Source: a virus | Lineage: Duplodnaviria > Caudoviricetes | Strand: one strand, 5' to 3' | DNA length: 64,000 nucleotides | IMG/VR virus record: IMGVR_UViG_3300031994_002623 | Span: 28,681 to 92,680 of that record | In this document: positions 45,713 through 62,910 of the stretch, one piece after another | How positions within the stretch are numbered: position 1 is the first letter of the stretch | Layout of the letters: each line of letters begins with the position of its first letter | Notes under the pieces: generated by a model | The model's input: the letters and a program-made list of their open reading frames with translations, nothing else | Told to the model about the DNA's origin: nothing | Database searches by the model: none | Made by a program: the position numbers and the translations under genes

Positions 45713-45840
45713 GTGAGATTTAGAAATATCACTACGGAGAGGAAATCCCTCCTGCGAAGGAGGAAATACACGGTCAAGTGGTGCGAGTCCACTCAATACG
45801 GATGGCACGTAGTGGTAAGTTGCAACTTTCTACTTCTCAC
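45713..45840 (+). ncRNA. 128-nt palindromic-bulge RNA A
   Basis: GTGAGA/TCTCAC, TATCACTACG/CGTAGTGGTA, GTTGCAAC bulge. Confidence 0.55.
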
Positions 45841-45938
45841 ATCATATCTCTGCGTTGGAATCGATTTGGAACGGGGGAGCACATAAACACAGCTTACCGT
45901 CGCAAGGTTAAACTCCGAGCACGACGCAGAGTCATTCT

Positions 45939-46083
45939 AAGGAACGTACAGCAGTCTAAGAAAAATTTAAACATTTGTATTTTATTTGTATTATTTTCGG
46001 ACAGGACTGAAGAAGCGTTAATCCCGAAAGGGGCGTGAAGCATCAGTTAACAGTCTGCCAGGACTTTAAACTGGTCGTTCCTT
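45939..46083 (+). ncRNA. CAGCA-stem (Y-like) RNA 7, non-tRNA structured cargo
   Basis: AAGGAACG-TACAGCAG...CGTTCCTT. Confidence 0.7.
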
Positions 46084-46090
46084 TTTAATA

Positions 46091-46440
46091 GGTAATGATA
46101 TAGAAGATGTCACAAGAAAATAAACAAAAAGTTGAAAAGGTTTTCCTACAAAATAGGTAAAGAAGTTATTCGCCTTTACTGAGGAAGTACTGACAAGAGA
46201 AAACACCTCAATGCACCGAGAATCTACCATACAATATAATTATGTGTGGCAAAAGTGAAAAGGAGTAGGACCGTAGTGGTCACACGTTAACCGTCTCTAC
46301 AGTTATTATTAATTAGTAGGGAAAATGCCTAGAATTAGAGGCATTTGTACAACTCTGAGATTATTGATAACGATGTTAAAAAGACTGCATATACATCTAT
46401 GACTTATTATTGTTTATGCGCCATCTTCTATATTATCACC
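46091..46440. repeat. IR-bounded ~350-bp cassette with structured non-coding content
   Basis: GGTAATGATATAGAAGATG...CATCTTCTATATTATCACC; homologous to the IRs at 13976/14309. Confidence 0.7.
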
Positions 46441-46449
46441 TTTTAATAT

Positions 46450-46538
46450 GTAGGGGTAAAACGTAATTGGATGACCGTCCTGGTCTACGAAACCAGTCTA
46501 TCGAGAGGTAGTTGTGGGTTCGAATCCCACCCCCTATA
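46450..46538 (+). tRNA. tRNA-Arg(ACG) with a long variable arm
   Basis: CTGGT-CTACGAA-ACCAG; CTATC-GAGA-GGTAG. Confidence 0.8.
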
Positions 46539-46572
46539 CAAAAAAAATTGTTTAATTTAAAAACTAAAGGAA

Positions 46573-46908
46573 ATGGTTGTAAAGACTAGTATTGGTAAAC
46601 TACTGGATATTCCAGAAGGTCATTTAATCATCAAGGATAATAGGCTCTTCAACACCAAGACAGGAGAGTTTGAAGCTGTTGATGGTGACATCATAGAGTT
46701 CATTACCAAGACTAATGATATTAAACTCTGGCATCGTGGGTTTGTTGATGGTTACACCAATGGAAATAACATAAGGCTGAGAGGCGTGGCTACAACGGAG
46801 TATAATAACATCATTCATAAGGACATTGAACATATATCAGTTGTTACATACTCAGACGGTATGACATTCGAACAGAAGGAACTTCTTGCAGCAACAGAAG
46901 CACTATGA
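46573..46908 (+). CDS. Hypothetical protein
   Basis: ORF track. Confidence 0.5.
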   Translation: MVVKTSIGKLLDIPEGHLIIKDNRLFNTKTGEFEAVDGDIIEFITKTNDIKLWHRGFVDGYTNGNNIRLRGVATTEYNNIIHKDIEHISVVTYSDGMTFEQKELLAATEAL

Positions 46909-47336
46909 ACTATTACGAAGGAAATAAACCATTCTCCCTGGAGAGTGAAGAATTTTATAAGTCGATTATAAGGGTCATCTATTCTCCAATGGAGAAAGTT
47001 ACATGGGTGACACCATATCGTAGGAAGGGTGATGTAATATATAGGAGGAATCTTTTTACCTTGTTCAAGAAAAAGGTAAAGGAGGTTGTCCAGGAAGACA
47101 TTATCAGAGAAGTTGGATGGGGGGGTGACTATTACTACTCTACCATAAGTGAGTATGCGAAGAAAAACAACCACCTTATTATTGATGGTGTTCTCTATAC
47201 CAAACCACGAGTTCTTATTGAAACCAATGTTAAAGACGGAAATAGAATAGTGAAATTCGAAACAGAGGCTGAGGCAATGAATTATATAACGTCTCTGAAA
47301 GAAAATTGTAAAAAATGCGGAAATAATCTGCTATAA
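46905..47336 (+). CDS. Hypothetical protein (paralog of 47374)
   Basis: Shared KGD.IY.R..F and C-terminal AM......K..C..CGN.LL. Confidence 0.6.
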   Translation: MNYYEGNKPFSLESEEFYKSIIRVIYSPMEKVTWVTPYRRKGDVIYRRNLFTLFKKKVKEVVQEDIIREVGWGGDYYYSTISEYAKKNNHLIIDGVLYTKPRVLIETNVKDGNRIVKFETEAEAMNYITSLKENCKKCGNNLL

Positions 47337-47373
47337 ATTTGTTTTTTACAAAAAAAATATATATCTTTGCACT

Positions 47374-47802
47374 ATGGAAGAGAGATATAAGGAACAGACT
47401 CTTAAATCTAGCGAATATTACGCAAATGTAGTTAATGTTAGTTTTGTCCCAGAGTTCGAACTACCAGAACTCAAGAAAGTAGTGTCTAAGGGAGACCCGA
47501 TATATGAACGTCGTGGGTTATTCATACGCAGGATGGTAGAGATTGGCAAGGAAGATAATGATAGGTACGATTTCCATGACCCTAAACATTATTACTGGGG
47601 GTACAGGAAAACATTGGAAGAACTTGCCGACATTGGTCAACACAGGATTACCAAGAAAGGTAAAATCTATAGACAGTCTAAGGTAACTGTTGCAACTAAG
47701 TCTGGTACTGACACCAACTGGTTCAATACAAATGAGGATGCCATGAAGTTCATGGAGGATGTTAAATCCAAGTGTTCCTCATGTGGAAATAAACTACTTT
47801 AA
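47374..47802 (+). CDS. Hypothetical protein (paralog of 46905)
   Basis: Shares the motifs of 46905; own promoter at 47362. Confidence 0.6.
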   Translation: MEERYKEQTLKSSEYYANVVNVSFVPEFELPELKKVVSKGDPIYERRGLFIRRMVEIGKEDNDRYDFHDPKHYYWGYRKTLEELADIGQHRITKKGKIYRQSKVTVATKSGTDTNWFNTNEDAMKFMEDVKSKCSSCGNKLL

Positions 47803-47885
47803 AAAAAAATTCACAAAAAAATTGTGTATTTTAGGTACTTTTGAAATTTATTGTATAATTATAGAAAAATCAAGTCATTAAAATT

Positions 47886-48097
47886 ATGAACACAACTATT
47901 AATAATATTGCTAAGACATTTGCTGCATTTGCTACATCAAGTAAATGGAGTGATTTTGTTGTGTCTAATTTTGATACAGGAGGAGGACAGCTTAGAGGTT
48001 ATACAGAGATATAATGAAAATGCGAAAGGCACTTACTTCACTATATATTTCCCAAGCTGTTGAAGAACTCCAAAAAAGTATTCAGCAGCTTTTTTTT
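47886..48097 (+). promoter_or_regulatory. Putative leader-peptide attenuator (42-aa ORF 47886-48014 plus terminator 48054-48097)
   Basis: GACAGCTT in the ORF pairs with AAGCTGTT of the terminator stem. Confidence 0.55.
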
Positions 48098-48183
48098 GTG
48101 AATAATCGTTAAAAAATTGGTCAAAAATTTGGAATTCTCAATTTTTTTATGTATCTTTGCACCGTGATTCAAAAACAGGGAAT

Positions 48184-48468
48184 ATGAAGGTAAGATGTAT
48201 AGAGCAGTTGCAGACCAAGCACATCACATTCAGACCAGGTGAAGATTACTTTGGTAGTGAGGTGAACAAGCAGTGGTGGGTAGTAGACTCTGTAGGAGTT
48301 GAGACTGATAACTTCCACCTTCATTTCGAGGTGATTGAGGAGGAAACTCCAGAAGAGGTATTTACTGAGGAAGAGGCATCTGCTGAGGTTGTTGAAGAGA
48401 AGAAAGAAGAAGAGGTTGAAGAGAAGCCTAAGTGGTATGAGAGATTAAGAGATTATATATTCGCTTAA
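48184..48468 (+). CDS. Hypothetical acidic protein
   Basis: Follows the promoter at 48152. Confidence 0.5.
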   Translation: MKVRCIEQLQTKHITFRPGEDYFGSEVNKQWWVVDSVGVETDNFHLHFEVIEEETPEEVFTEEEASAEVVEEKKEEEVEEKPKWYERLRDYIFA

Positions 48469-48469
48469 T

Positions 48470-48542
48470 GGGGCGGTAGCAAAGATGGTCAATGCACCAG
48501 ACTGAAAATCTGGCTATGGTGGTTCGAGTCCACCCCGCCCCA
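48470..48542 (+). tRNA. tRNA-Phe(GAA)
   Basis: CCAGA-CTGAAAA-TCTGG. Confidence 0.88.
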
Positions 48543-48566
48543 CGAACAAATAGGTGACAGATATTT

Positions 48567-48641
48567 GGTCCTGTAGTAGAATTGGTTACAATGCCACGTT
48601 GTCAGCGTGTGTGGATGTGGGTTCGAGTCCCACCTGGACCG
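48567..48641 (+). tRNA. tRNA-Asp(GTC)
   Basis: CACG-TTGTCAG-CGTG. Confidence 0.82.
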
Positions 48642-48785
48642 CAAAGTTGTTCGAAAAGGTGTAGTTCGAAATGCACTGAAGTAGATTAAATGTGGAAAAT
48701 CGTACCCTGCCAGTAGTTGTGATGAACGATAGTACTGGGACAACAGAGGATGAGAATTCACGACCTCAACACAACAACTTTACTT

Positions 48786-48858
48786 GGGGTATAGGTCAAA
48801 CGGTTAAGATGTCTGCCTGTCACGCAGCACGGAGCGAGTTCAACTCTCGTATACCCCG
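48786..48858 (+). tRNA. tRNA-Asp(GTC)
   Basis: CTGC-CTGTCAC-GCAG. Confidence 0.82.
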
Positions 48859-48997
48859 CAAGGGCTAGCTAGAAGGTAAGTACAAGGCTTTCAAGAGTTT
48901 GTTGTTTTATTGAGGGAAGCTAGAAACAGAACATAGTGGCTTGAAACGCTATGCTAGTGGTTCGATAATTACTGAAGGTTACACTAGGTTTTTACTT

Positions 48998-49070
48998 GTG
49001 GGAGTAGCTGAGAGGTTTAGCGGTGGGTTGAAGCCCCACGACAACGGTGGTTCGATTCCATCTTCTCACA
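48998..49070 (+). tRNA. tRNA-Phe(GAA)
   Basis: GTGGG-TTGAAGC-CCCAC. Confidence 0.85.
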
Positions 49071-49071
49071 C

Positions 49072-49199
49072 AAAGACCAGATTCAGAGTGGGGCATTAGG
49101 AGGGCTACGAGGAGGAGGCTATGACACTGAATTCATGAGCAGTTGAGCCGAATGCTAACTAAGTAAGTCCGCATCTGTGAGTTGCAACATCTGGTCTTT
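49072..49199 (+). ncRNA. 128-nt palindromic-bulge RNA B
   Basis: AAAGACCAGAT/ATCTGGTCTTT with a GTTGCAAC bulge. Confidence 0.55.
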
Positions 49200-49204
49200 A
49201 CTTT

Positions 49205-49280
49205 GGGTGCATAGCTTTTTAACGGTTAGAGCGACGGCCTGTTAAGCCGAGGGTTGGAGGTTCGAATCCTTCTGCGCCCG
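49205..49280 (+). tRNA. tRNA-Asn(GTT)
   Basis: CGGC-CTGTTAA-GCCG. Confidence 0.85.
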
Positions 49281-49287
49281 CAAACAT

Positions 49288-49360
49288 TGGGGAGTAGCGC
49301 AGCGGTTAGCGCAGTAGACTGTTAATCTATTGGTCGTGGGTTCGAATCCCACCTCCCCAG
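49288..49360 (+). tRNA. tRNA-Asn(GTT)
   Basis: GTAGA-CTGTTAA-TCTAT. Confidence 0.92.
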
Positions 49361-49608
49361 CGAAAAAAGTTCTTTGAAAATTTTGATTTCTTAGATATTT
49401 TATATATCTTTGCATCGACTTAAGAATATTCCCAGACGTGGGTCTCAAACAACACTCAAAGATGTACATATGAGTGGCTAGAGTTGTTAGACTGTGAAGT
49501 GGGACGAAGTAACCCACAACGTTAGCCATACGTCCGTTCAAGGTAGCAGCCATTTTATCTAGCCGTAAGGAAGCACTAAGCCAACGATACTGCTGCTGTG
49601 CATTGCTT

Positions 49609-49680
49609 GGGGTTTGTAGTGTAATGGCTAGCACCAGTCCTTTGCAAGGATTTAGAGGGGTTCGAATCCCACAGACTCCA
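49609..49680 (+). tRNA. tRNA-Ala(TGC) with an apparent 8/4 acceptor/T fold
   Basis: GGGGTTTG/CAGACTCC with G3:U70; AGTCC-TTTGCAA-GGATT. Confidence 0.78.
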
Positions 49681-49752
49681 CGTAAAAAAGTTTATTCGAA
49701 TACTTGATTTTTTAGTAACTTTCATTATATTTATTATAAAGGAAGTTCGAAA

Positions 49753-50355
49753 ATGAAAGTAAATTGGATTAACGAGAAGGAAGCTCTTGAGAAACTGATT
49801 AGTGAGGGAGTATCATATGAGCGCATTGGCAGACAGTATGGCGTTACTGGTGCTTCTGTGAAGAAGGCTGCAAGGAAAATGGGTATTGAGCTTGAACAAA
49901 GGCGAGAAATAAACCCAGATGAACATTTCAATAAAGGTAATCGCAAAACTCATATTTGTGCCAATTGTGGCAAAGAATTTGAACATAGATATACCTCTGA
50001 TAATAAATATTGTTCATTTAATTGCCAGCACGAACATGAATATAAATTATTTATTGAACGTTGGAAAAATGGTGATGAATCTGGAGTTACTGGTAAGTAT
50101 GGAATATCAATGCACATACGTAGGTATCTCTTCGAAAAGAATAATGGTAAATGTCAAATATGTGGATGGGGAGAGGAAAACCCAGTAACACATAAAATTC
50201 CATTACAAATTCATCACATAGATGGAGATTGCACAAACAACAAGGAGGAGAATCTTCAACTGTTATGCCCAAACTGTCATTCGTTAACGGATACATTCGG
50301 TAATCTTAACGAGAACTCTAAAAGGATATACAGGAAACAGAAGGGCAACTTGTAA
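49753..50355 (+). CDS. HNH (homing) endonuclease
   Basis: N-terminal HTH, CxxC zinc finger, C..CG...LQIHHIDGD..NN...NLQLLCPNCH. Confidence 0.9.
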   Translation: MKVNWINEKEALEKLISEGVSYERIGRQYGVTGASVKKAARKMGIELEQRREINPDEHFNKGNRKTHICANCGKEFEHRYTSDNKYCSFNCQHEHEYKLFIERWKNGDESGVTGKYGISMHIRRYLFEKNNGKCQICGWGEENPVTHKIPLQIHHIDGDCTNNKEENLQLLCPNCHSLTDTFGNLNENSKRIYRKQKGNL

Positions 50356-50385
50356 GGGTCGTGGGTTCGAGTCCCACTAGCTCCA
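50356..50385 (+). pseudogene. Orphan 3' half of a tRNA-Ala
   Basis: GGGTC-GTGGG-TTCGAGT-CCCAC-TAGCTCC-A with no 5' half. Confidence 0.6.
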
Positions 50386-50395
50386 CAAGTATTTT

Positions 50396-50482
50396 GGAGG
50401 TATGTGATAATTGGTAGTCGGACTGTCTTGAAAACAGTTGGTCGCTGATAACGGCTTGGGGGTTCGAGTCCCTCTACCTCCG
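50396..50482 (+). tRNA. tRNA-Ser(TGA)
   Basis: ACTGT-CTTGAAA-ACAGT; long variable arm. Confidence 0.88.
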
Positions 50483-50510
50483 CAATGTTTAACTCATATA
50501 ATTAAGAATA

Positions 50511-50900
50511 ATGTTAGATTACGACATCGTAGTAGTTACTGACTACAACCAGAAATGTATTGTTCCGAAACTGAAGGAAGACGGGCGCAGTATGGGGTCT
50601 TTGGTTATCCAGGACGGTTCTTCTAAATACTATAACAGGTTTGCGGAATACTGTAACGGAAATGGTAAGCTGATGATAATAAAGTTGCTGCTGGTACATC
50701 AGAAATACGCAGGCAATGGAATTGCAACAGCTCTTATCAAAAAGGCGTTAGAGGTTTATAAGGACTACAACTTAGTATTACTGGTACATCCATGCGCACA
50801 TATGGCAATGAGTGGAGACCAGCTTCAACAGTTCTATAGCAAGTTCGGCTTTGTAAGAACTGGAGAACTACAGAGAACGATGGTCAGAAAGGCAATATAG
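50511..50900 (+). CDS. GNAT acetyltransferase
   Basis: V...YAGNGIATAL...L..FYSKFGF. Confidence 0.8.
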   Translation: MLDYDIVVVTDYNQKCIVPKLKEDGRSMGSLVIQDGSSKYYNRFAEYCNGNGKLMIIKLLLVHQKYAGNGIATALIKKALEVYKDYNLVLLVHPCAHMAMSGDQLQQFYSKFGFVRTGELQRTMVRKAI

Positions 50901-50946
50901 TCCTTCCCTGTTGGGGGCGATAATATCACAGGGTGGCGGCTAATAT

Positions 50947-51270
50947 ATGACGAAGAAATTTTGGAATGATTGGCAAAAAAGAATTGGTGAGACAAAACAG
51001 GTCTACTTGTCTTATGATTTTTTTGGGAGAAAGATGAATGGTAGATGTAACTGTAGACGCTTACTGACTTACCGTCTTACTGATGATGGTAATGATAAGG
51101 TCATCTCAGTTAAATTCAATGGTGATACGGTTAGTATGGTAATCGAGAGAAAAACTTGTGTGACAGACCTATCAAGTAGAAGAGGTTATCACTATCACTC
51201 TGAGAATGAACATATCACCTTGAATAGGGAGGATATTATTACTGTAGAGTTCTTTGAAAATAAGGCATAA
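50947..51270 (+). CDS. Hypothetical protein
   Basis: ORF track. Confidence 0.5.
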   Translation: MTKKFWNDWQKRIGETKQVYLSYDFFGRKMNGRCNCRRLLTYRLTDDGNDKVISVKFNGDTVSMVIERKTCVTDLSSRRGYHYHSENEHITLNREDIITVEFFENKA

Positions 51271-51396
51271 GATACAGAAGGAAACGCCAGGAACACCAAC
51301 CTGGAGAAGTTACCGTAGGCAACGAGTTAGTTAGTATCATCCAATCAAGGCTAACGACTACAGTTGTACGGGATAGTGGAATGTAAGTATTACAAT

Positions 51397-51484
51397 GGAG
51401 AGTTACCCAAGTTGGTGAAGGGGAGACATTGCTAACGTCTTAGGTCTGTAACAGGGCGCAGGGGTTCGAGTCCCTTACTCTCCG
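51397..51484 (+). tRNA. tRNA-Ser(GCT)
   Basis: Loop TTGCTAA; long variable arm. Confidence 0.88.
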
Positions 51485-51508
51485 CTTTAATTTTAAAGTT
51501 ACAATGTT

Positions 51509-51811
51509 ATGAAATTAGTACTTTTATTTCTTTTAATCCTTTCAATAGCTACGTTATTTACAAGTAGCACTAAAGGTAGGTTGTTAAATTCAACCATCAA
51601 CTTTTTCCTTATGTCGCTATTGGCTATAAAGGATTACGGAACAGAACCTACGTGGCTCTGGGTGTTATCTCTCATACTAGCAATTATAGATGCGGTATTT
51701 GTGGTAATATACCTAAAAATGTACATTGATGAAAAAAATGGTAAGGAAGCCATTAAGATTAATAACAGAGATAAGTTTTTAAGTGATATAAAAAGGAAAT
51801 ATGGTAGTTAA
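51509..51811 (+). CDS. Hypothetical membrane protein
   Basis: Hydrophobic segments. Confidence 0.45.
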   Translation: MKLVLLFLLILSIATLFTSSTKGRLLNSTINFFLMSLLAIKDYGTEPTWLWVLSLILAIIDAVFVVIYLKMYIDEKNGKEAIKINNRDKFLSDIKRKYGS

Positions 51812-52046
51812 CGATATAAAGCCACTTGTTAAGGGTATTGCACAGCTCCAGTATGTAATGGCTGGTGGTATAGCAGTTTACCACATTATCTCAGTGGATG
51901 ACAAGAAGTATCAACTTGAGATTAACCTTAGCAACAAACAGGATGTTGGCGAAACGGCAGCATTCAAGCCGACTGAAAAGGCACTCTTATTCATGAGGTG
52001 GATTAGAAGGGCGAATGAACAAGACGAATTAATCGAGATAAGATAA
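51801..52046 (+). CDS. Hypothetical protein
   Basis: D.G...F...EKA..FMRWIR motif. Confidence 0.55.
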   Translation: MVVNDIKPLVKGIAQLQYVMAGGIAVYHIISVDDKKYQLEINLSNKQDVGETAAFKPTEKALLFMRWIRRANEQDELIEIR

Positions 52047-52047
52047 G

Positions 52048-52302
52048 ATGGGCAGACGTGGTGAGACATACGCTGACGGACTTGTTAAGGGTCATAGAAT
52101 TGGTTTCGAGAGAGGCAGGAAGGAAGCCCTTGTAGAACTCCAGAAGAATAATCCGAACAAGGATTTACCCTCTAACGAGGTCCTGTACAGGATATTCAAG
52201 CTCCTGTTTGAGTGTGAAGAGAATGATAGAAAGTCTAGTAGTTGCTACATGAATCAATATGAGCACTATGCAAATTATATAACAAAAAATTGGAATAAAT
52301 AA
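52048..52302 (+). CDS. Hypothetical protein
   Basis: ORF track. Confidence 0.5.
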   Translation: MGRRGETYADGLVKGHRIGFERGRKEALVELQKNNPNKDLPSNEVLYRIFKLLFECEENDRKSSSCYMNQYEHYANYITKNWNK

Positions 52303-52311
52303 AAATAGCAT

Positions 52312-52395
52312 ATGAAGACTGTAATGAGATATAAACGTCAGAAACGAAAGTGACGCTCTATTAGCTGGTCAACTCAGTTGAAGCTTCGAGCGTCA
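52312..52395 (+). promoter_or_regulatory. Lys/Arg-rich 13-aa leader ORF plus hairpin upstream of the tRNA-Lys cluster
   Basis: MKTVMRYKRQKRK*; TGACGCTC/GAGCGTCA stem starting at the stop codon. Confidence 0.45.
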
Positions 52396-52414
52396 TAGGA
52401 AAGATACAACAAAT

Positions 52415-52487
52415 GCGCTTGTAGCTTAGCTGGTAGAGCACGTGTCTCTTAAACATGGGGTCGTGGGTTCGAATCCCACCAGGCGCA
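52415..52487 (+). tRNA. tRNA-Lys(CTT)
   Basis: CGTGT-CTCTTAA-ACATG. Confidence 0.9.
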
Positions 52488-52512
52488 CTAAGGTATTCTA
52501 TATCGGTTCAAT

Positions 52513-52586
52513 GCGCTCATAGCTCAGTAGGTAGATGCACGTGACTTTTAATCATGGGGTCGAGGGTTCGAGTCCCTCTGGGCGCA
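52513..52586 (+). tRNA. tRNA-Lys(TTT)
   Basis: CGTGA-CTTTTAA-TCATG. Confidence 0.9.
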
Positions 52587-52596
52587 CACAGATAAC

Positions 52597-52687
52597 GCTT
52601 CCATCGTATATCGGTAAGTGCCTGGAGACAGACGGATTACATCGGTCTTTTAAACCGAATAGCAGGGTTCGACTCCCTGTGGAAGCA
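52597..52687 (+). tRNA. tRNA-Lys(TTT) with an enlarged D-loop
   Basis: TCGGT-CTTTTAA-ACCGA; CTG-GAGA-CAG insertion in the D-loop. Confidence 0.78.
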
Positions 52688-52701
52688 CACAGTTTTTATA
52701 T

Positions 52702-52786
52702 GCGTCGTTGGCAGAGAGGTTATGCAACAGACTCTTAATCTGTACTGGAAACGGTGACGTGGGTTCGAGTCCTACACGACGCACCA
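52702..52786 (+). tRNA. tRNA-Lys(CTT) with a long variable arm and encoded CCA
   Basis: ACAGA-CTCTTAA-TCTGT; ACTG-GAAA-CGGT. Confidence 0.85.
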
Positions 52787-52806
52787 AACTTTTAAATAAT
52801 GTTACG

Positions 52807-53229
52807 ATGGCAAGATTTAGTGAAGAGTATATACGTAAGTCTCTGAAGGAATACTGGGACGAGGTTGACTACAAAGTAGGAGACTGGGTTGAAACTTGTA
52901 ATCTCCTCCCTGGCATTGTCCAGGAGATAGAGATAAGGTACGACAGAGAACAGGAATACTTCGTTGAAGAGACTAGAATCTTCTACCCACACATGGCGTT
53001 CGACGAGAAGAACGAGCATAAGTATCATGGTGGTAGTTGCTGTTCAGTTCACCATTGTGGAGTGCACAAGATAACTCCAGAGTATGCATGCAAGCTCATG
53101 GCTCTTGGCGAGGAAAGACTCAAGAAGCTCTGGGAAAAGGGCTGCAAGATGACTCCAGAAGGCGAGGCTATGAAATGGGAGAAACTTGTGGAAGATGAAT
53201 ACGATGAGGTGTTCAAAGAAGAAAGATAA
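52807..53229 (+). CDS. Hypothetical protein
   Basis: VETC..LPG...CS..HCGV motif. Confidence 0.55.
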   Translation: MARFSEEYIRKSLKEYWDEVDYKVGDWVETCNLLPGIVQEIEIRYDREQEYFVEETRIFYPHMAFDEKNEHKYHGGSCCSVHHCGVHKITPEYACKLMALGEERLKKLWEKGCKMTPEGEAMKWEKLVEDEYDEVFKEER

Positions 53230-53241
53230 AGAGATATTTGT

Positions 53242-53369
53242 GGGTACATACAGCAAGATAATATTACATTCGAGCAAACTTTTAATTTGTGTGTAACGTG
53301 GGTTCGACTCCCACCCCCTCCGCAATTTAATACAACATGGAGGGGTTGAAATGACGGTTTAGTGTACCC
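53242..53369 (+). ncRNA. CAGCA-stem (Y-like) RNA 8 with a permuted tRNA-Lys(TTT)-like module
   Basis: GGGTACA...TGTACCC; GCAAA-CTTTTAA-TTTGT, T arm, CCCCTCCG/TGGAGGGG. Confidence 0.8.
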
Positions 53370-55455: not shown

Positions 55456-55463
55456 TCATATAT

Positions 55464-55539
55464 TCGTCGGTAAATGAAAGTGGTCTAATCTGCTAGACTC
55501 CAAATCTAGTGTACGTGTGTTCGAATCGCACCCGACGAG
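55464..55539 (+). tRNA. tRNA-Trp(CCA)
   Basis: CTAGA-CTCCAAA-TCTAG. Confidence 0.8.
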
Positions 55540-55557
55540 CTTAAAGAAAAAAGTGTT

Positions 55558-55770
55558 ATGGATATAGGTTGTATTGCAAGTGCCATCTACCTAGTTGTAG
55601 GTTTGTTGTTAGCCCGAAAGTGGTTCAACGACGAGTATAAGGATGAATACGATGAACTCAAGAAAAACGGAGAAGTTCAGCCAGCAATGGCATGTATTTT
55701 ACTTATGGTAATGGCTATATTCTGGCCAATTAAACTAACGTACAATCTAATTAAGTATGGGGAAATATGA
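55558..55770 (+). CDS. Small membrane protein
   Basis: Two hydrophobic helices; FWP motif. Confidence 0.5.
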   Translation: MDIGCIASAIYLVVGLLLARKWFNDEYKDEYDELKKNGEVQPAMACILLMVMAIFWPIKLTYNLIKYGEI

Positions 55771-56160
55771 ATTTACCAAAATCGTTTATAAGGAACAGAG
55801 TATTTGAGATAGGGATTGCAATTGTAAGAAAACCTAAAGAGAAACTCATTGAGTTCTTCCATAAGAGGGTGGACTGGTGGCTAAACATATATGGCATTAG
55901 AATCAAGCAATACAGTTGCTACCTTATGTGGAAGAAAGTTTGTTTTTAATGAAATATGACAGGAAATAAATTACTTCAACTGGTGATGCCCTATACGTAT
56001 AGACAAGGGTTCACTTATCGGACGAAAGACCATAACTCACATCCTGGAAACAAGAAGCACAAGAGTCTTGGTCATTGCGGACACGTTATCAAAAAGGCTG
56101 GTCAAACCATGCTTAGGAGAACGTTAAAGAGAGAAATGTTAAACCAAATAGAGAAAGATA

Positions 56161-56613
56161 ATGAGTAAGATAGCATTATTCCCAGGAAGTTTTGACCCAT
56201 TCCATAAGGGTCATAGGTATGTGGTAAATGCAGCATTACAACTGTTTGACGAGGTATATGTCTGTGTTGCGGTGAATCCACAGAAGAAAGGCTACTTTGA
56301 GCCTAATGCACGAGTAAGTATGATTGAGACAATCTTTCGTGAAGAGCCTCGTGTGAAGGTTATCAGTACTGATGGACTGGTATTCAAGAAAGCCCAGGAG
56401 ATTGGTGCTTCATTCATCATCAAGGGTGCAAGAAACGGCAGTGATTTTACTGATGAAGTAGCACAAGCCGATATAAACTGGAATATTGGGAAGATGCCTA
56501 CAATAGTGATTCCAACACCTAATACATTATCCTATATAAGTAGTACTGCAATAAGGAGTATACTTCAGACTTGTAAGGGTGATTCTAGCCTAGTAAAAGA
56601 CCTAGTGTGTTAA
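56161..56613 (+). CDS. coaD: Phosphopantetheine adenylyltransferase
   Basis: FPGSFDPFHKGH, NPQKK, KGARN..DF..E, ISST. Confidence 0.88.
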   Translation: MSKIALFPGSFDPFHKGHRYVVNAALQLFDEVYVCVAVNPQKKGYFEPNARVSMIETIFREEPRVKVISTDGLVFKKAQEIGASFIIKGARNGSDFTDEVAQADINWNIGKMPTIVIPTPNTLSYISSTAIRSILQTCKGDSSLVKDLVC

Positions 56614-57939
56614 CAAAATAAAAAAATTAGCTGAAAATTTGGAATTACGAAAAAAAATATATATCTTTGCACCGTGATTCAGAAACAGTAAGTTTAACGA
56701 ATAAATTAACGACAATGATTGAAGGAGCAATTTTAGTGGCAATCGGTTGGTTTGGTCACAAGTATAAAGACCCCATCGTCAAGACAGTCAAGAACTGGAT
56801 GGGTAAGTAAACCGACAAAGGATATGGCATCGAGCCTGTCGGTGAAACATATGTTGGATTAAAATACACTTCGTAAACCGTGAGTGAGAATATAGTTTAG
56901 GTGAAAACATCTGTTGACAGGAAGTTCATGCCAAAGTTATAAGTGGGAGGAGAGAACCGTAATAGTAGGTTGGAAACAACCTTCGGGTCTCCTTGAAAGG
57001 CCGAGTCACACTTTCAATAACAAACGGTCCCAATTTTTTAAGAGATTATCAGTCAAGCGGCTTTAAGCCCCGTACCATGCATAGGTTAGTATGGCGTATA
57101 TTGGTCTTAACAACGTTAGTGCAAGACAAGTGCTCGATGGCTTGTAAATAATTATGGGTACAGAGTGCGAAGCATGCTTGAGAAGTTTAATAGGTATAAA
57201 CGCAGGCAGAGGCTGACAACAGCCGAACTGAGACAGAAGGTTCAAATCCTCTCCGCAAGCACAATACAGAAATATATGACACTGACTTCGGAACGTGTAT
57301 GAAAGCTGTAGAAAAGGTTCACATAGAGTGTCGCAAGGCATTGAAAGGGTTACGTAACCTATGTGAATCCATAGATGACACTTCGGAAGAGACGGAGTAC
57401 TTTACTCGTGGTCTAGTAACGAGTCGGATTTTCCACTCCAAGTTAGGGAGAAACTGGGGGATGTATGAGAAAACATACTTTACAACATTCTCACGCAAGT
57501 AAGACTAGTATCTATATGGTTGAACTTGCATCATCCTTGAAAGGCGAATGGGTAACGCACCAGCACACAAGGCTTCGGATGTAATCTGCGGCAGTGGTTG
57601 GAAAAAGTAGGTTCGAATCCTCACTGCAAGGGCAACGGTAGTCTATACATTTCGGACTTCGGGAAGAAGTTGATGGCTATCTAAGGGTGGGTTTCTAGAG
57701 TAAAACATAAGGCGGTACATCCCACTACTCGAATGGCACTGTGGAATAGACATGGCGTGACCCAAGCTACGAGGAAGACTGGGAGACGGTTTACGATTTT
57801 TATAATACTAAAAAAATTGGAGGCAACTTTTAGCCCTCATTTGGCTACTGGTTGTGACACGTGGTTATAATTCCACCCTAAGAAGGTAAGGCAAGCTTGT
57901 CCAATGACAGGCAGTTTCGAGTGATACCACGTATTTTAT

Positions 57940-58015
57940 AGGACATTAGCTCAGCTGGTTCAGAGCGTCTGGTTTACACCCAGAAGGTTCGTGGGTTCGA
58001 ATCCCTCATGTCCTA
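57940..58015 (+). tRNA. tRNA-Val(TAC)
   Basis: TCTGG-TTTACAC-CCAGA. Confidence 0.88.
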
Positions 58016-58034
58016 CAACGGGGAGACATCCCCA

Positions 58035-58099
58035 GGGCAGTTAGTTCATGTGGTAGAACATCGGATGCGAAGAATGGGATTCAAACGCCTTACTGTCCA
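58035..58099 (+). pseudogene. Degenerate tRNA-like gene (truncated anticodon arm)
   Basis: GGGCAGT/ACTGTCC, normal D arm, TCG-GATG-CGA. Confidence 0.45.
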
Positions 58100-58103
58100 C
58101 AAA

Positions 58104-58167
58104 GGAAGCATACAGCAAAATTCTATAGGACTCAACTTGTAAGTGATAATTCTAGAAAACTGCTTCC
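58104..58167 (+). ncRNA. CAGCA-stem (Y-like) RNA 9, minimal
   Basis: GGAAGCA-TACAGCAA...TGCTTCC. Confidence 0.7.
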
Positions 58168-58198
58168 GATTTTAAAAGAAATATATAAAGGAAAATAT

Positions 58199-58759
58199 AT
58201 GGCAGAAAAAGTAGGTGTAATTATAGCACGTTTACAGCCTATACATAATGGGCATCTGGAACTGATACGCCAAGCACTTAATGAGAACGACAAGGTTCTT
58301 GTACTGGTAGGTTCAGCTGACAAGCTTAATAAGAGGAATCCTATTCCTATCAATATGAGAATGGAAATGGCATGTGATGCAATAGTCACTACCTTCAGTG
58401 AAGATAAGGACAGGATAAACGTGCAGCCTCTAGATGACCTTACTGATGAGTCTGATAATTCTCATGACTGGGGATTCTATCTCTACAGTAAAATTGTAGG
58501 ACTTACAAGGTCTCCAGAGTTTACCATCTATTATTCAGATGGATTCGAAATCATTATGCTCTGGTTTCCACCATTCATCACAAGAAACTATGTGTCATTT
58601 AAGTTGAATGCCAGGGGAACGATTGCTGAGAATATCTCAGCGACTTCAGTCAGACATATGATTATGAATAAAGATGATGAAGCACTTAAGAAATTCGTGC
58701 CAGATAGCGTCTTCGAAAAAAGAGACATATTGAGACAGTTCATAGGTGCTTATCAATAA
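58199..58759 (+). CDS. NMN adenylyltransferase-like (NadM-type) nucleotidyltransferase
   Basis: ARLQPIHNGH, VGSA, RNP, ISAT.VR. Confidence 0.8.
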   Translation: MAEKVGVIIARLQPIHNGHLELIRQALNENDKVLVLVGSADKLNKRNPIPINMRMEMACDAIVTTFSEDKDRINVQPLDDLTDESDNSHDWGFYLYSKIVGLTRSPEFTIYYSDGFEIIMLWFPPFITRNYVSFKLNARGTIAENISATSVRHMIMNKDDEALKKFVPDSVFEKRDILRQFIGAYQ

Positions 58760-58767
58760 AAGATAGT

Positions 58768-59010
58768 ATGAATTACGATGTAGGACAACCATTCATTGAG
58801 GTTACGTTCCCAACTAGGGGTACTAAAAAGGCTCTGTTTAGGCGTGAGGATATTCTCAGAGTTACAGAAACAATAACTCCAGATGGAGACCCTCTTGTGA
58901 CTATCTTTGTAAAGCCTTTGAGTAGTAATTGCTGCAAAGAATATCTAGAGTGGTATTTCGACGGTACTATGGAGAAATTTAGGGAGTCTACAAAGACCGT
59001 GTATATGTAG
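58768..59010 (+). CDS. Hypothetical protein
   Basis: ORF track. Confidence 0.45.
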   Translation: MNYDVGQPFIEVTFPTRGTKKALFRREDILRVTETITPDGDPLVTIFVKPLSSNCCKEYLEWYFDGTMEKFRESTKTVYM

Positions 59011-59028
59011 TACGTTGGTGATATTAAT

Positions 59029-59108
59029 CGGGGTGTATCTCCTCTCGCTGATACCGAGTAGAAAGAGTAGTAGGTTGCACGCAGGTTCGACTCCTGCCGC
59101 CCCGACCA
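59029..59108 (+). tRNA. tRNA-Ile(GAT) with an internally permuted D-arm and encoded CCA
   Basis: CGGGGTG/CGCCCCG-ACCA; CTCG-CTGATAC-CGAG; GAGTAGTAGGTT after the anticodon arm. Confidence 0.7.
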
Positions 59109-59111
59109 ATT

Positions 59112-59225
59112 TGAAGGATACCAGAGGAGAACTAGGGCAACCTAGATGTAGACAAATGGGCATTACTTTCGTGAGTAATGTGCTCTTAGGAGCTTCGGTG
59201 TGTGCAAATCCACCTCCTTCAACCA
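59112..59225 (+). ncRNA. Giant-D-loop tRNA-like RNA, copy A (encoded CCA)
   Basis: TGAAGGA/TCCTTCA-ACCA; GAGGAGAA-hairpin-ATGTAGACAAA. Confidence 0.8.
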
Positions 59226-59284
59226 GTTTAAAAGGAGTTCTTTGATATTTTTACATATTAGGATATATTTATCTTACAACAAAT

Positions 59285-59656
59285 GGGCTTGAAACGGAAT
59301 AGACAGCTATACATTTGGTAGGAGACAAGCAGTGGGCATACACTAGAAATAGCGAAAAAATATAAATGGCGAGATAGATTTCTCTCCTGCTTACGAGTAC
59401 GCTGTAGCAGCTTAAAGTGAGCCGAGAGACCAGGCTCTTAGGAACAGAACATCCTGGTAACTTGTTTCTTGGTGTCATGAAACCAAGTGGTGGCTATGAC
59501 CGATTGACATCCAGTCAATCCCCCAATGTTTTCCTCGTTTTCTCAAAATGAGGTGGTCCCAAAGACGGTGGCGCAAGCCATTGCACATTTTGGAAAGCTT
59601 GTATAATCTCTTATGGGATGGTAGTTTGGACCGCAGTTCGACTCTGCGCAAGTCCA
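59285..59656 (+). ncRNA. ssrA: tmRNA; tag (A)GEIDFSPAYEYAVAA*
   Basis: GGGCTTG/CAAGTCC-A acceptor with G3:U; T-loop; tag ORF 59368-59415. Confidence 0.9.
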
Positions 59657-59680
59657 CGTAAGAATCTGATAATCAGATAG

Positions 59681-60256
59681 TTACACGATAAGATTAGATG
59701 TATAAACAGATATTTCTTTTAGGAATTTTCTGACCTCTATATCTGATTTAGTACTTTTCATTAGGTTAATAGGTGTTGATATAAACTGTATATTACCCTT
59801 TACATACCCCAATGAGGAATCAATCCTATCCAAAGAGGCTCTGTGAAAAAAATCAATTTCATTCACATTAGAATTTTCTGGTAGGATTAGGCTCAAACCT
59901 GTATAAGGACAGATACCATTCTGTTTTTCCCAGGTTTCTTTTAAATCATCTAGGGTTATATCAACATCTTTGAAACGTCTTGTTACGCACCTGTAGGTAT
60001 ATCTAAATGGAGTATATTCATCCCTATGATTTCTGCAAATGTGTTTTAAATGTTCCAACATTTTGTCTGAAGCTGGCTTATATGGCATTTCCTTTCGGAC
60101 TTTAGACGTTCCTTTGCTAACGCATTCACGACAGCAGTAAAGATGTCTACCTTTTGATTTAATTCGTGTGACTTCTTTTAGTGGACGTTCAAATTCTTTT
60201 CCACAGTTATCGCAGATAACTTTCACTAATTTACCTTGATTTTTATATTTATTCAT
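59681..60256 (-). CDS. HNH-type endonuclease with a zinc finger
   Basis: CDNCGKEF...YCCRECV; GICPYTG...SLDRIDSSLGYVKGN...N. Confidence 0.8.
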   Translation of the reverse strand: MNKYKNQGKLVKVICDNCGKEFERPLKEVTRIKSKGRHLYCCRECVSKGTSKVRKEMPYKPASDKMLEHLKHICRNHRDEYTPFRYTYRCVTRRFKDVDITLDDLKETWEKQNGICPYTGLSLILPENSNVNEIDFFHRASLDRIDSSLGYVKGNIQFISTPINLMKSTKSDIEVRKFLKEISVYTSNLIV

Positions 60257-60429
60257 AATGTATATGTATTTTATTATAAATATCTGGTAAGGTGGAGAAA
60301 TACGGAGTTTAATAGGTTTTCTTTCCGTTATTGTCCACTTGAAAAAAAAAAATGAAAAATTTCTTCTGAAAAATTTGGATTTTACGAAAAAAATATATAT
60401 CTTTGCACCGTCAATTAAAAACAATAATT

Positions 60430-60681
60430 ATGGAGAAGATATTAGAAAGTGAATTCAGAAACAACCTGTATAAGTCTCTAGTAGACGCAGGATACGAGAA
60501 GAAAGAGGCTCAGAAAATTGTAGGTGTGAAGTATCACGGAGCACTGAAGGCTGACCTTAAGCAAAGGCTGGAAACACTATCAGCCCTGGTAGAGGACGAA
60601 ACTTATGATGGTTTAGTCTTCAACGGAGAAGAACTTAATGGTCTAGTAGATGAGCTTAAAAAGGTCAAAGGTGTAATTTAA
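60430..60681 (+). CDS. Hypothetical protein
   Basis: Follows the promoter at 60398. Confidence 0.5.
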   Translation: MEKILESEFRNNLYKSLVDAGYEKKEAQKIVGVKYHGALKADLKQRLETLSALVEDETYDGLVFNGEELNGLVDELKKVKGVI

Positions 60682-60847
60682 TAAAAAAAAGTTCCTAAAA
60701 AATTTGGAATTACGAAAAAAAATATATATCTTTGCACCGTGAAAATATAAACATGTTGATAACAAGTACCACTGTTAAGCTAAGACTGCTGAAATGATTG
60801 CAGAGTGTTGATGAAGCTTCATACGGATGAACAACATGTTTCAATAT

Positions 60848-60931
60848 AGTGGGATAGTGTAATGGTAACATGCTAGGCTCATAACCTAGAGACATTAATT
60901 GCTAGCGTTGGTTCGAATCCAACTCCCGCTA
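60848..60931 (+). tRNA. tRNA-Met(CAT) with a long variable region
   Basis: CTAGG-CTCATAA-CCTAG. Confidence 0.8.
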
Positions 60932-60936
60932 CTCTT

Positions 60937-61046
60937 TGAGAGATACCAGAGGAGAACAGTCGCAAGGCTGATGTAGACAAATGGGCAGTACGGTAAGTAT
61001 TGTGTTACTTCGGTAACTTCGTGGTGTGCAAATCCCACTCTCTCAA
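60937..61046 (+). ncRNA. Giant-D-loop tRNA-like RNA, copy B
   Basis: TGAGAGA/TCTCTCA; same conserved motifs as copy A. Confidence 0.8.
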
Positions 61047-61053
61047 CTATATT

Positions 61054-61165
61054 TGGTAGATACGAGAGGAGAACTGGAATAATCCAGATGTAGACAAATC
61101 GGCATTAAGTTCGTGCTTAATGTGCCTCTTAGGAGGCTTCGGTAGTGCAAATCTACCTCTACCAA
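61054..61165 (+). ncRNA. Giant-D-loop tRNA-like RNA, copy C
   Basis: TGGTAGA/TCTACCA; D-stem CGA/TCG covariation. Confidence 0.8.
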
Positions 61166-61357
61166 CAAATTGGTAAAGGGATAAAGCGGGACTAAGGTAG
61201 TCTAAAGCCCTTGAATCATAGAAAGCGAACGATACCCAAAGGTGTAAAAAGTGTTCCATGTTGAACTACCATAGGAAGGAGCGTATACGTGCTGACGTGG
61301 AAGTGTACAGCCACAACTGAGCGACTCGCAAGCTTTCGTGAACCAATAAACTTCTTT

Positions 61358-61467
61358 TGAAGGATACCAGAGGAGAACAGTCGCAAGGCTGATGTAGACA
61401 AATGGGCAACATGGTAAGTGTTGTGCTCTTTCGAGAGCTTCGGTGTGTGCAAATCCACCTCCTTCAA
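61358..61467 (+). ncRNA. Giant-D-loop tRNA-like RNA, copy D
   Basis: TGAAGGA/TCCTTCA. Confidence 0.8.
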
Positions 61468-61662
61468 CATTGAATCTCGCAGCTAAAACAGTAGTGATGA
61501 GGCTAGTGTTTACTAGAACAATGCGCAAAATGTCTAGGAAGCTGTGGGTAGGTCTTCAAGTTAGTCTAGAATGATTTGTTGATTCGAAAAATCCTCATCA
61601 ACAATACGTTAATTCTTAACGCAAAGAGTTTTTGCGGTGGACAAAGTAAAAAAACCACCTTT

Positions 61663-61774
61663 TGGTAAGTACCAGAGGAGAACTAGGGAAACCTAGATGT
61701 AGACAAATGGGCATCAAGTTCGTGCTTGATGTGTCGCTAAGGCGGCTTCAGTAGTGCAAATCTACTCTTACCAA
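61663..61774 (+). ncRNA. Giant-D-loop tRNA-like RNA, copy E
   Basis: TGGTAAG/CTTACCA. Confidence 0.8.
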
Positions 61775-61789
61775 CTACTTCTCACGTTA

Positions 61790-62648
61790 TAGGCTTCGGC
61801 TGAAAACGAGGAAGATGGCTAGCTTTCGTAGCCATAAGGATAATCCAGTGATGGGATAAATGTGATGGGTTTAATCAACTACTCCGTCGCAGATGTTTGG
61901 AAACAGGCATTTCACAGAAAAGGACAAGGTGCGGTATCTTGTTCTGGTAACACAGTGCAGGGTGCTATCGAGGCTAAAAGGCTTCGGTTGAGTGGAAACA
62001 CAATAGAGTCCGAGTCGAATTCGATGCAATACTCACCAGGTGGCGTGTTGGATTCAGTTAATTTCTCAGCTTCACAGTGAATTAATAAGCTGAAAGCAGT
62101 GTGAGGGGCTTGCCCCAAGCATACGAGGTTTTAATAGCAGAGTAGACTTGTGGTGAGTCTGGTGCAGGATGGCGATTTAGTGGGCTGTGCTCAAAAGGCA
62201 CGGATGCTAAGGGTCGCACCTCGTCATCCAGTAGTTGGGAGTTGTAGCTCAAGTGGTAGAGCAGCCGACTTGAAATCAGCGTGTTATAGGTTCGATTCCT
62301 ATCGATTCAGTTAAAATAATTTGAATTAAAGCAAAAGTGTGCGACACTGGGCAGATAAAATGCACTTATCGCTCCTGCAATATGGAGGCATCGGGGACTC
62401 GCAAGGAATCCGATGAACGAGTAAGAGTAGTCATCTGAGTCAGCTGGAGGCATCCAGTGAGTCTGCAAGAGCTTGGTGGTGAAATGAATGTTATGATTCT
62501 GTACCGAAAGGTTTAAACCAGTAAGAGTTTGGTGGTTTTCGCAAAACCATCGTGCATGGTGTCTACGGCTATCGTAAGGTAGCGTGTGAACAACAACGTC
62601 CAACCGTTGTGAAAGGGCATCTACAATAAGACAACGTTCTCAGTCTTT
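61790..62648 (+). ncRNA. Large ornate RNA (GOLLD-like) with an embedded tRNA-like gene
   Basis: ~860 nt with no credible CDS; many GNRA/UUCG hairpins; long-range AATCCAGT/GTTGGATT pairing; GOLLD identity from recall only. Confidence 0.5.
62238..62310 (+). tRNA. tRNA with a TGA (Ser) anticodon but a short variable loop
   Basis: Canonical D/T arms; loop CTTGAAA; weak acceptor stem. Confidence 0.6.
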
Positions 62649-62658
62649 TGTATTTTAT

Positions 62659-62779
62659 GGGGTTATAGTTTAGCGGTTAAAATAATTTGTTACGAGCTAG
62701 TACTATACGCACTGACTTCGGGAAGTGTTGACGTGCTAGTAAATGATAAACGACGTTGGTTCGAATCCTTCTAGCCCTG
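62659..62779 (+). tRNA. tRNA-like gene whose anticodon arm is replaced by a long hairpin
   Basis: GGGGTTA/TAGCCCT, D and T arms; CTAGTAC/GTGCTAG extension. Confidence 0.55.
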
Positions 62780-62782
62780 CAA

Positions 62783-62910
62783 ATTGAGATTTACATAGTA
62801 GAAAAGCGAAGCACGTGTGAATCGGAGGTAACCAGTTCTAGTAGAAGCCTTCATCGGTGGGCTGGGCATAAATGAGGAGATACTACTATGTAGCTTGCAA
62901 GAATCTCAAT
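62783..62910 (+). ncRNA. 128-nt palindromic-bulge RNA C
   Basis: ATTGAGATT/AATCTCAAT, TACATAGTAG/CTACTATGTA, CTTGCAAG bulge. Confidence 0.55.

Follow-up and report, generated by a model that had tools for sequence, protein, structure and literature searches.

Elements R1, R2, and R3 in a viral tRNA array

The stretch of DNA analyzed here (hereafter the window) comprises 64,000 nucleotides of the IMG/VR virus record IMGVR_UViG_3300031994_002623 (Duplodnaviria; Caudoviricetes; positions 28,681 to 92,680), i.e., the last 64 kb of a 92.7-kb contig with an estimated completeness of 37%. Near-identical contigs from both DNA and RNA libraries are found in sheep and cattle gut (rumen) samples. Genes for Hsp70, TyrRS, RtcB, TelA, and a DUF2828/DUF7788 protein (phrog_850, labelled 'RNA-binding protein' in PHROGs) lie upstream of a dense tRNA array, which extends from approximately 38 kb onward and contains 36 tRNAs (detected by ARAGORN) and a tmRNA. 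Within this array are three elements of 128 nt each, here named R1, R2, and R3 (Table 1), for which a first-pass annotation of the window had proposed a two-part closing helix and a self-complementary bulge on the 3' side. Minimum free energy (MFE) folds and a palindrome scan recovered all three with exactly this length, position, and architecture.

Each element begins 0-3 nt after the 3' end of a tRNA or a tRNA-like RNA, in agreement with the same annotation: the gap is 3 nt for R1 (after tRNA-Arg(TCT)), 0 nt for R2 (after tRNA-Phe), and 3 nt for R3 (after a tRNA-like RNA). R2 is also bounded on its other side, ending 5 nt before tRNA-Asn (49205). Processing of the tRNA-Arg 3' end would set the 5' end of R1, and RNase P cleavage at tRNA-Asn would set the 3' end of R2. 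In the MFE folds, the two ends of each RNA form a helix of 10-12 bp (P1, which in R1 consists of 6 + 6 bp with a 2 × 2 loop), followed by a bulge of 8-9 nt on the 3' strand only and then by a second helix (P2), which has approximately 10 bp in R1 and R3 and is irregular in R2. The sequences of the closing helices are unrelated among the three elements, and the interior (the insert) is approximately 70 nt in all of them. At the DNA level, the palindromes read GTTGCAAC at 45819-45826 and 49181-49188 and CTTGCAAG at 62894-62901. A second palindrome, CACGUG, is present inside R3 (62812-62817); it is invariant in 4/4 R3-family sequences and could self-pair if exposed.

Table 1. Positions of R1-R3, their parts, and the adjacent tRNAs (window numbering)
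Feature	Coordinates	Strand	Evidence
tRNA-Arg(TCT), immediately upstream of R1	45636..45709	+	ARAGORN; Rfam tRNA
R1, whole (128 nt)	45713..45840	+	Fold z = -4.1; rank 2 of 559 palindromes
R1 P1, 5' strand (6 bp, 2-nt loop, 6 bp)	45713..45726	+	Fold
R1 P2, 5' strand	45727..45736	+	Fold
R1 insert: GCGA-tetraloop hairpin and T-arm-like hairpin	45737..45807	+	Fold; homolog searches negative
R1 P2, 3' strand	45808..45817	+	Fold
R1 3' bulge: A plus self-complementary GUUGCAAC	45818..45826	+	Fold, palindrome scan
R1 P1, 3' strand	45827..45840	+	Fold
tRNA-Phe, immediately upstream of R2	48998..49071	+	ARAGORN
R2, whole (128 nt)	49072..49199	+	Fold, palindrome ranking, orthologs
R2 P1, 5' strand (11 bp)	49072..49082	+	Fold, ortholog comparison
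R2 self-complementary bulge GUUGCAAC	49181..49188	+	Fold, palindrome scan
R2 P1, 3' strand	49189..49199	+	Fold
tRNA-Asn, 5 nt downstream of R2	49205..49281	+	ARAGORN
121-nt tRNA-like RNA upstream of R3	62659..62779	+	Rfam tRNA, 34.6 bits
R3, whole (128 nt)	62783..62910	+	Fold, orthologs
R3 P1, 5' strand (2 compensatory pairs among 4 sequences)	62783..62792	+	Alignment
R3 P2, 5' strand	62793..62801	+	Alignment
R3 P2, 3' strand	62883..62891	+	Alignment
R3 3' bulge: AG plus self-complementary CUUGCAAG	62892..62901	+	Palindrome scan, alignment
R3 P1, 3' strand (first G also in palindrome)	62901..62910	+	Alignment

Statistical evaluation of the closing helix

Comparison of whole-molecule folds with shuffled sequences, a check named in the first-pass annotation, gave a divided result: the fold of R1 is better than its shuffled controls (z = -4.1), and those of R2 (z = -0.7) and R3 (z = -0.9) are not. 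The closing helix, or handle, was evaluated separately by removing the bulge and then scoring continuous pairing of the 3' strand with a 5' strand located 80-130 nt upstream, which gave energies of -28, -30, and -27 kcal/mol for R1, R2, and R3, respectively. By this measure, the three elements take ranks 1-3 when all 559 perfect 8-nt palindromes of the 92.7-kb contig, both strands included, are compared; among 249 TTGCAA sites from four related phage records, they stand at the top together with one R3 ortholog. Because a random-position control of the handle energy is heavy-tailed (1% of positions at -24.9 kcal/mol), energy alone is weak evidence, and it is the palindrome rank and the covariation described below that carry the argument. 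The handle is not a product of chance. The motif STTGCAAS occurs 9 times in the window versus 4.7 expected, a count reached in 4/100 shuffles.

A first, strict scan for contiguous helices recovered R3 only, and Rfam searches, both at the gathering threshold and at E values up to 5, gave no match at R1-R3. A MAFFT alignment of the three elements was meaningless because their interiors are unrelated; homologs were searched by a descriptor of our own and by duplex scans. Several other readings of these sites were considered and rejected. The handle architecture is not formed by the segment 48860-48997 (z = +0.5), on whose 5' side CTAGCTAG is located; TTGCAA as a promoter -35 box lacks a correctly spaced -10 box; no terminator on the + strand was found at any of R1-R3; and small open reading frames (ORFs) over the elements (45704-45886, 45778-46038, and 48941-49099) are unsupported, the covariation of the handle being RNA-like.

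Free-standing relatives of R1, R2, and R3

Three related phage records (G001-G003) were found by means of the Ro-like protein encoded in the window. One of them, G001, contains an R3 ortholog of 133 nt (within an 80%-identical stretch covering R3), and a second ortholog of 128 nt is present at another locus (L081). A further copy, in L066 (130 nt), has a hairpin that is 95% identical to that of R3 including the insert, and lies in an intron-like, partly degenerate context with a receptor base and downstream intron blocks. Alignment of the four R3 sequences reveals a 10-bp P1 with two compensatory pairs, an unchanged bulge, and a 9-bp P2, and in this family the inner hairpin has been exchanged for another one that itself has four compensatory pairs. 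Two complete 412-kb phage records contain R2 orthologs immediately downstream of tRNA-Phe, one of 128 nt (L154) and one of 88 nt (L160); in the latter the insert is shortened, and one C-G pair of P1 has become U-A and its neighbor U.G. The handle and the bulge are thus preserved in the orthologs of R2 and R3, with compensatory changes, and it is the insert that has been replaced or has become shorter. This bears out the proposal of a handle-plus-cargo family made in the first-pass annotation; loss of the bulge, which it had named as a refuting outcome, was not seen in any of these homologs.

A length of 128 nt, which the first-pass annotation had measured for each of the three elements, is found in R1-R3 and two near-identical orthologs, and does not hold for the other relatives (88, 130, 133, and 161 nt). 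The longest of these is a free-standing copy between tRNA-Asp and tRNA-Phe in one of the 412-kb phages (L160), and its insert is of the same family as that of the copy found in an intron context at G001's R1 locus. Additional free-standing copies butt-joined to tRNAs were detected in other contigs (L144 and L076). For R1, the pattern search gave chance hits only, and BLAST against all fetched loci gave none. The R1-equivalent locus of G001 (G001:C1:15850-16960, minus strand; L008/L011) contains an intron-type hairpin followed directly by an apparent 3' half of tRNA-Arg; no clear tRNA 5' half was found there, and the locus may represent an intron-bearing tRNA that has degenerated or been rearranged. 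In the 412-kb genomes G004 and G005, paired GTTGCAAC sites were rejected as coincidences in coding regions.

Relationship with P8 arms of group I introns located in phage tRNA genes

A search of IMG/VR with the R3-type 3' end detected more than 100 loci, of which approximately 45 have the same architecture, many with strongly conserved flanks. The homologous hairpins sit in inserts of 467-833 nt within the anticodon loops of phage tRNA genes that are normal in other respects (ARAGORN, introns allowed), namely those for tRNA-Arg(UCU), tRNA-Leu(UAA), tRNA-Met, tRNA-Ser, and tRNA-Ile, and removal of the insert restores a canonical tRNA. In most cases the exon ends in U and the intron in G, and the guide triplet varies with the exon (Arg, Leu, and Met). 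A structure with P1, P2, a P3-P7 pseudoknot, P8, a P9.0-like helix, and a GUAA-capped hairpin could be named, whose 41 pairs are 96.9% paired across 12 sequences versus 31-49% when the partners are slid, and compensatory changes are present in 10 of these pairs (3 of them in P7). Judged by these features, the inserts behave as group I introns of the bacterial tRNA type (Azoarcus-like, IC3). Rfam Intron_gpI (RF00028) gave no match to them at E values up to 10; its seed set contains no bacterial sequence (10.1101/2020.01.27.920355).

The 3' strands of P3 and P7 flank the hairpin, which is therefore an extended P8. The base of P8 in these introns reads CCUAAG...UAUGG, which would correspond to the 11-nt GAAA-tetraloop receptor of the Azoarcus intron P8. 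Many introns of the same family have a short P8 only, without the module. R1-R3 are not themselves inside introns: they are flanked by complete tRNAs and lack the receptor base and the downstream intron block, and the intron core motif is absent from the window. Comparison of these sequences thus identifies a portable module, free-standing in R1-R3 and forming the outer P8 arm of many tRNA introns of related phages, a homology that goes beyond anything in the first-pass annotation. Besides L079:6758-7333, the family includes approximately 70 other IMG/VR loci (e.g., L089, L036, L042, L128, and L052), with ORF-less introns in the size range given above. Three contigs of 219-409 kb that were binned into metagenome-assembled genomes (MAGs) of Bacilli, Alphaproteobacteria, and Anaerolinea (L297, L298, and L301) carry the exact 3' end of the intron hairpin, and are probably giant-phage contigs mis-binned into bacterial MAGs.

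Self-complementarity of the bulge and covariation of the adjacent helix

Samples blind to the bulge were assembled by choosing hairpins either by their 5' strand only or by a conserved intron block approximately 200 nt downstream. In each of the 73 distinct hairpins with an extended P8, a self-complementary stretch of 8 or 10 nt immediately precedes the 3' strand of P8a, with a linker of 1-2 nt on its 5' side. Nine bulge types were observed among them, including CUUGCAAG in 61 hairpins, six other octamers (CUUCGAAG, CUAGCUAG, CUCAUGAG, CCUGCAGG, CUCGCGAG, and CUUUGAAG), and the two 10-mers CUUGCGCAAG and CUUGUACAAG; a tenth version, GUUGCAAC, is that of R1 and R2. Self-complementarity is obligatory at this position. 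Its maintenance can be followed in two near-isogenic pairs of sequences: in one (93% identical), CUUGCAAG has changed to CCUGCAGG by the symmetric substitutions U2C and A7G, and in the other (96% identical), CUUGCAAG has changed to CUUUGAAG by G4U and C5G. The latter octamer pairs with itself only through two G.U pairs and is thus self-complementary only as RNA.

The two central positions (4 and 5) are G-C, C-G, A-U, or U.G. These positions are neighbors and so cannot pair with each other inside a single bulge; that they are complementary in every variant demands a second, antiparallel copy, and an intermolecular duplex is the only arrangement that requires such complementarity. The octamer has no partner in cis: TTGCAA occurs only once in 15/18 intron pre-tRNAs, and no second conserved copy was found near the variant octamers CCTGCAGG and CTTTGAAG. 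The palindrome is unpaired in the predicted monomer, where it forms the 3' bulge in both MFE and consensus folds and takes the same position in the 73 intron hairpins. The adjacent helix (P2, or P8b in the introns) is hypervariable yet complementary, with 63 distinct 5' strands that form on average 6.5 contiguous pairs versus 2.35 with mismatched partners. In this variable helix G.U combinations outnumber A.C combinations (43 vs 8), implying selection on the transcribed (RNA) strand. The comparative evidence that the bulge would pair with a second copy is strong, and the suggestion of RNA-RNA dimerization in the first-pass annotation has gained considerably from it.

RNA-library coverage of R1

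R1 is covered by RNA-library contigs from two studies, both starting exactly at 45713. A third RNA-library contig (X19, from cattle rumen) joins this position to a different upstream tRNA end; the start at 45713 is thus better explained by branching of the assembly between strains than by a 5' end of the RNA. Transcription of R1 is plausible. In the strain represented by X19, R1 seems to follow another tRNA, as if it had moved as a unit.

A proposed dimerization module and alternative explanations

We consider it likely, on comparative grounds, that R1-R3 are free-standing members of a hairpin module whose self-complementary octamer pairs two copies, or two RNAs with the same octamer. In the proposed mechanism, the array would be transcribed as a long precursor, from which RNase P and tRNA 3' processing would release hairpins of approximately 90-160 nt with both ends buried in P1. 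With a linker of 1-2 nt on the 5' side of the bulge and none on its 3' side, the octamers of two such hairpins would form an 8-bp intermolecular helix (predicted at approximately -9.5 kcal/mol for isolated octamers), and since this helix would run into the 3' strand of P1 without a linker, it would probably stack on P1. The resulting dimer would be symmetric and would carry two insert arms. Different octamers may act as orthogonal pairing codes, with R1 and R2 sharing one and R3 using another. Our best guess is that the module would stabilize or co-assemble the structured RNAs of the array, such as intron-bearing pre-tRNAs, excised introns, and free hairpins; self-assembly has precedents in other phage RNAs.

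Several points weigh against this explanation. The case for dimers is a comparative one. As whole molecules, R2 and R3 do not fold better than their shuffled controls, P2 of R2 is irregular and is weakened further in one ortholog, and R1 has no homolog, so that its handle rests on a single sequence. The R2 orthologs and many of the hairpins were found by patterns that contain the palindrome, and the bulge-blind sets comprise intron-borne copies only, with one conserved P8a sequence. The dimers given by RNAcofold are trivial domain swaps that are uninformative about kissing, secondary-structure programs being unable to model a bulge-bulge kissing interaction. Processed ends were not seen in the RNA-library contigs over R1, which run on into neighboring genes and cannot show ends.

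The alternative that comes closest is that R1-R3 are decaying, functionless P8 remnants of group I introns lost from the neighboring tRNA genes, which we regard as unlikely. The near identity of the R3 hairpin and insert to those in the intron-like context of L066, the intron-type hairpin beside a tRNA-Arg 3' half at the R1 locus of G001-G003, and the patchy occurrence of the elements among relatives would all be expected of such fossils. However, P1 has been maintained by compensatory changes in the R3 and R2 families with the bulge unchanged, R2 has been retained after tRNA-Phe in distant 412-kb phages despite its shrunken insert, and the elements are cut to fit the tRNA borders exactly; in addition, R1 and R2 share no sequence with the intron P8a and carry a different octamer, and no intron core motif remains in the window. 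Loss of introns explains the origin of the elements, not their compensatory maintenance or their conservation in distant phages.

Recognition by a protein appears less probable still. Here, a phage protein (e.g., a Ro-like DUF2828-VWA protein) would bind the bulged closing helix in the manner of Y RNAs, which likewise have a bulged terminal stem, and the insert would be the effector module; the genome does encode the DUF2828/DUF7788 protein and RtcB, and weak YrlA-like RNAs are present in the array. On the other hand, no match to YrlA (RF02553) or Y RNA (RF00019) was found at R1-R3 at E values up to 5, a TROVE domain (PF05731) was not detected anywhere in the contig, and the YrlA-like RNAs of the array use a different conserved handle. 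A single-stranded palindrome offers no symmetry that a protein would read, and ten octamers that are all self-complementary are not what a sequence-specific protein site would produce; protein binding, which the first-pass annotation had offered beside dimerization as the reason for the palindrome, is thus improbable.

We give very little weight to the possibility that the palindrome acts at the DNA level as the site of a dimeric enzyme (a homing or restriction endonuclease, or a recombinase), the hairpin being mobile DNA with inverted-repeat ends. The occurrence of the module in different contexts (intron P8 arms and spacers between tRNAs), the conservation of P8a like a terminal inverted repeat, and an HNH endonuclease gene at 49753-50355 would fit such an element, but the excess of G.U over A.C in the variable helix, the variant that is self-complementary as RNA only, and the location of every copy on the transcribed strand would not, and ten octamers would require ten enzyme specificities. 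Finally, the resemblance of the bulge to the anticodon loop of tRNA-Ala(UGC), which had been pointed out in the first-pass annotation and of which UUGCAA represents positions 33-38 in the two phage genes (49609-49681 and 63413-63485), can practically be dismissed as a sign that the bulge imitates or pairs with this loop, because mimicry needs no palindrome and the variants CUAGCUAG, CCUGCAGG, CUCAUGAG, and CUCGCGAG mismatch legitimate anticodon loops (by a pyrimidine or G at position 37), yet are palindromic.

The module is real, widespread, and apparently undescribed. In a more tentative extension, which we think possible and rather doubtful, giant rumen phages would possess a sequence-coded system of RNA-RNA pairing: the introns themselves would dimerize via the P8 bulge, and free hairpins with the same octamer would dock onto introns or onto each other. 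Such pairing would govern how pre-tRNAs fold or splice, or would assemble RNA particles of defined form. If so, no earlier case would be known of natural group I introns that form homodimers and have trans-acting partners. A search of a paper library found no natural dimerizing group I intron, and none is included in a 2026 review of natural RNA assemblies (PMC12990946).

Comparison with known RNAs

The closest counterpart of R1-R3 is the P8 arm of the Azoarcus-type (IC3) introns described above, which has the same order of a helix, a self-complementary 3' bulge with a linker of 1-2 nt, a covarying second helix, and a variable insert; the P1 of R3 differs from the intron P8a by compensated changes. 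Unlike this arm, R1-R3 lack the CCUAAG/UAUGG receptor-like base and the intron core and are flanked by complete tRNAs, and R1 and R2 depart from it further by unrelated P1 sequences and by their octamer, GUUGCAAC.

Palindromic elements for RNA dimerization are known from other systems, such as the kissing loop of the HIV-1 dimerization initiation site (DIS). Palindromic intermolecular pairing also underlies the dimers of HYER1 (by its D3 palindrome) and ARRPOF (by a bulged 12-bp P10) (PMC12990946). All of these resemble the module in presenting an unpaired self-complementary stretch on a structured RNA whose variants stay self-complementary, and in ARRPOF the intermolecular helix also arises from a bulge, as proposed here. 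The module has no homology to any of them, and differs in that its 3' bulge lies between two stacked helices and that its dimer is inferred from sequences.

The prohead RNA (pRNA) of phage phi29, which has approximately 120 nt and paired 5' and 3' ends, oligomerizes by intermolecular base pairing in which one of the partners is a bulge loop. It is among the assemblies covered by the review cited above (PMC12990946). In this RNA, two different complementary loops close a ring that binds the portal, whereas the module has a single self-complementary site that would give dimers only and has no link to packaging. In position, R1 resembles two stable RNAs of phage T4, rnaD (species 2, 119 nt) and rnaC (species 1, 139 nt), which lie directly after tRNA-Arg in the tRNA cluster of that phage at distances of 1 and 6 nt from their neighbors, as R1 follows tRNA-Arg(UCU). 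The T4 RNAs have no sequence similarity to it, their folds contain neither a two-part closing helix nor a palindromic bulge, and rnaC ends in a tRNA-like T arm. YrlA (RF02553), the partner of Ro/Rsr, shares with R1-R3 a closing stem formed by the 5' and 3' ends, an asymmetric bulge, and a variable or effector module. A search with RF02553 weakly matched three other loci of the array and none of R1-R3, which have a different handle, no module of T arm plus D arm, and a palindromic instead of a Ro-type bulge.

Research on natural quaternary structures made of RNA only is moving fast (GOLLD, ROOL, OLE, and HYER), and this compact module of approximately 30 nt may add a case with unusually clean comparative evidence for pairing between molecules, as ten versions of the octamer are all self-complementary. 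Some of the non-tRNA 'dark matter' of phage tRNA arrays could be accounted for by this module, which may also offer orthogonal natural dimerization tags for RNA engineering and cryo-electron microscopy (cryo-EM).

Other features of the window

The possibly Ro-like DUF2828/DUF7788 protein and the RtcB RNA ligase are encoded at 23537-25213 and 30937-32301, respectively. The HNH endonuclease gene is free-standing and lies within the tRNA array, 550 nt downstream of R2. For a neighboring protein of 143 amino acids, no relatives were found in IMG/VR. The weak YrlA matches (25-40 bits) are located at 40998-41077, 43993-44117, and 44840-44945; these RNAs share a closing stem of their own (GGAAAC.. 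/ ..GUUUCC) together with a CAGCA motif, and form a family distinct from R1-R3.

Upstream of R3, the region 62167-62646 matches the Rfam model of GOLLD with 70 bits (E = 2e-16), which is below the gathering score of 150, and a tRNA-Ser(UGA) (62238-62310) is embedded in this match. The GOLLD-like stretch 61794-62617 reaches contig depths of approximately 5000 in four rumen RNA libraries versus approximately 15 for its neighbors, and adapter read-through at 61794 and 62617 suggests a GOLLD-like RNA of approximately 820 nt. R3 is outside the match, which ends 137 nt before it, and the abundant RNA appears to stop near 62617. Between the GOLLD-like RNA and R3 lies the tRNA-shaped RNA of 121 nt (62659-62779), which has a long branched insert in place of the anticodon arm and is conserved in G001 and L081.

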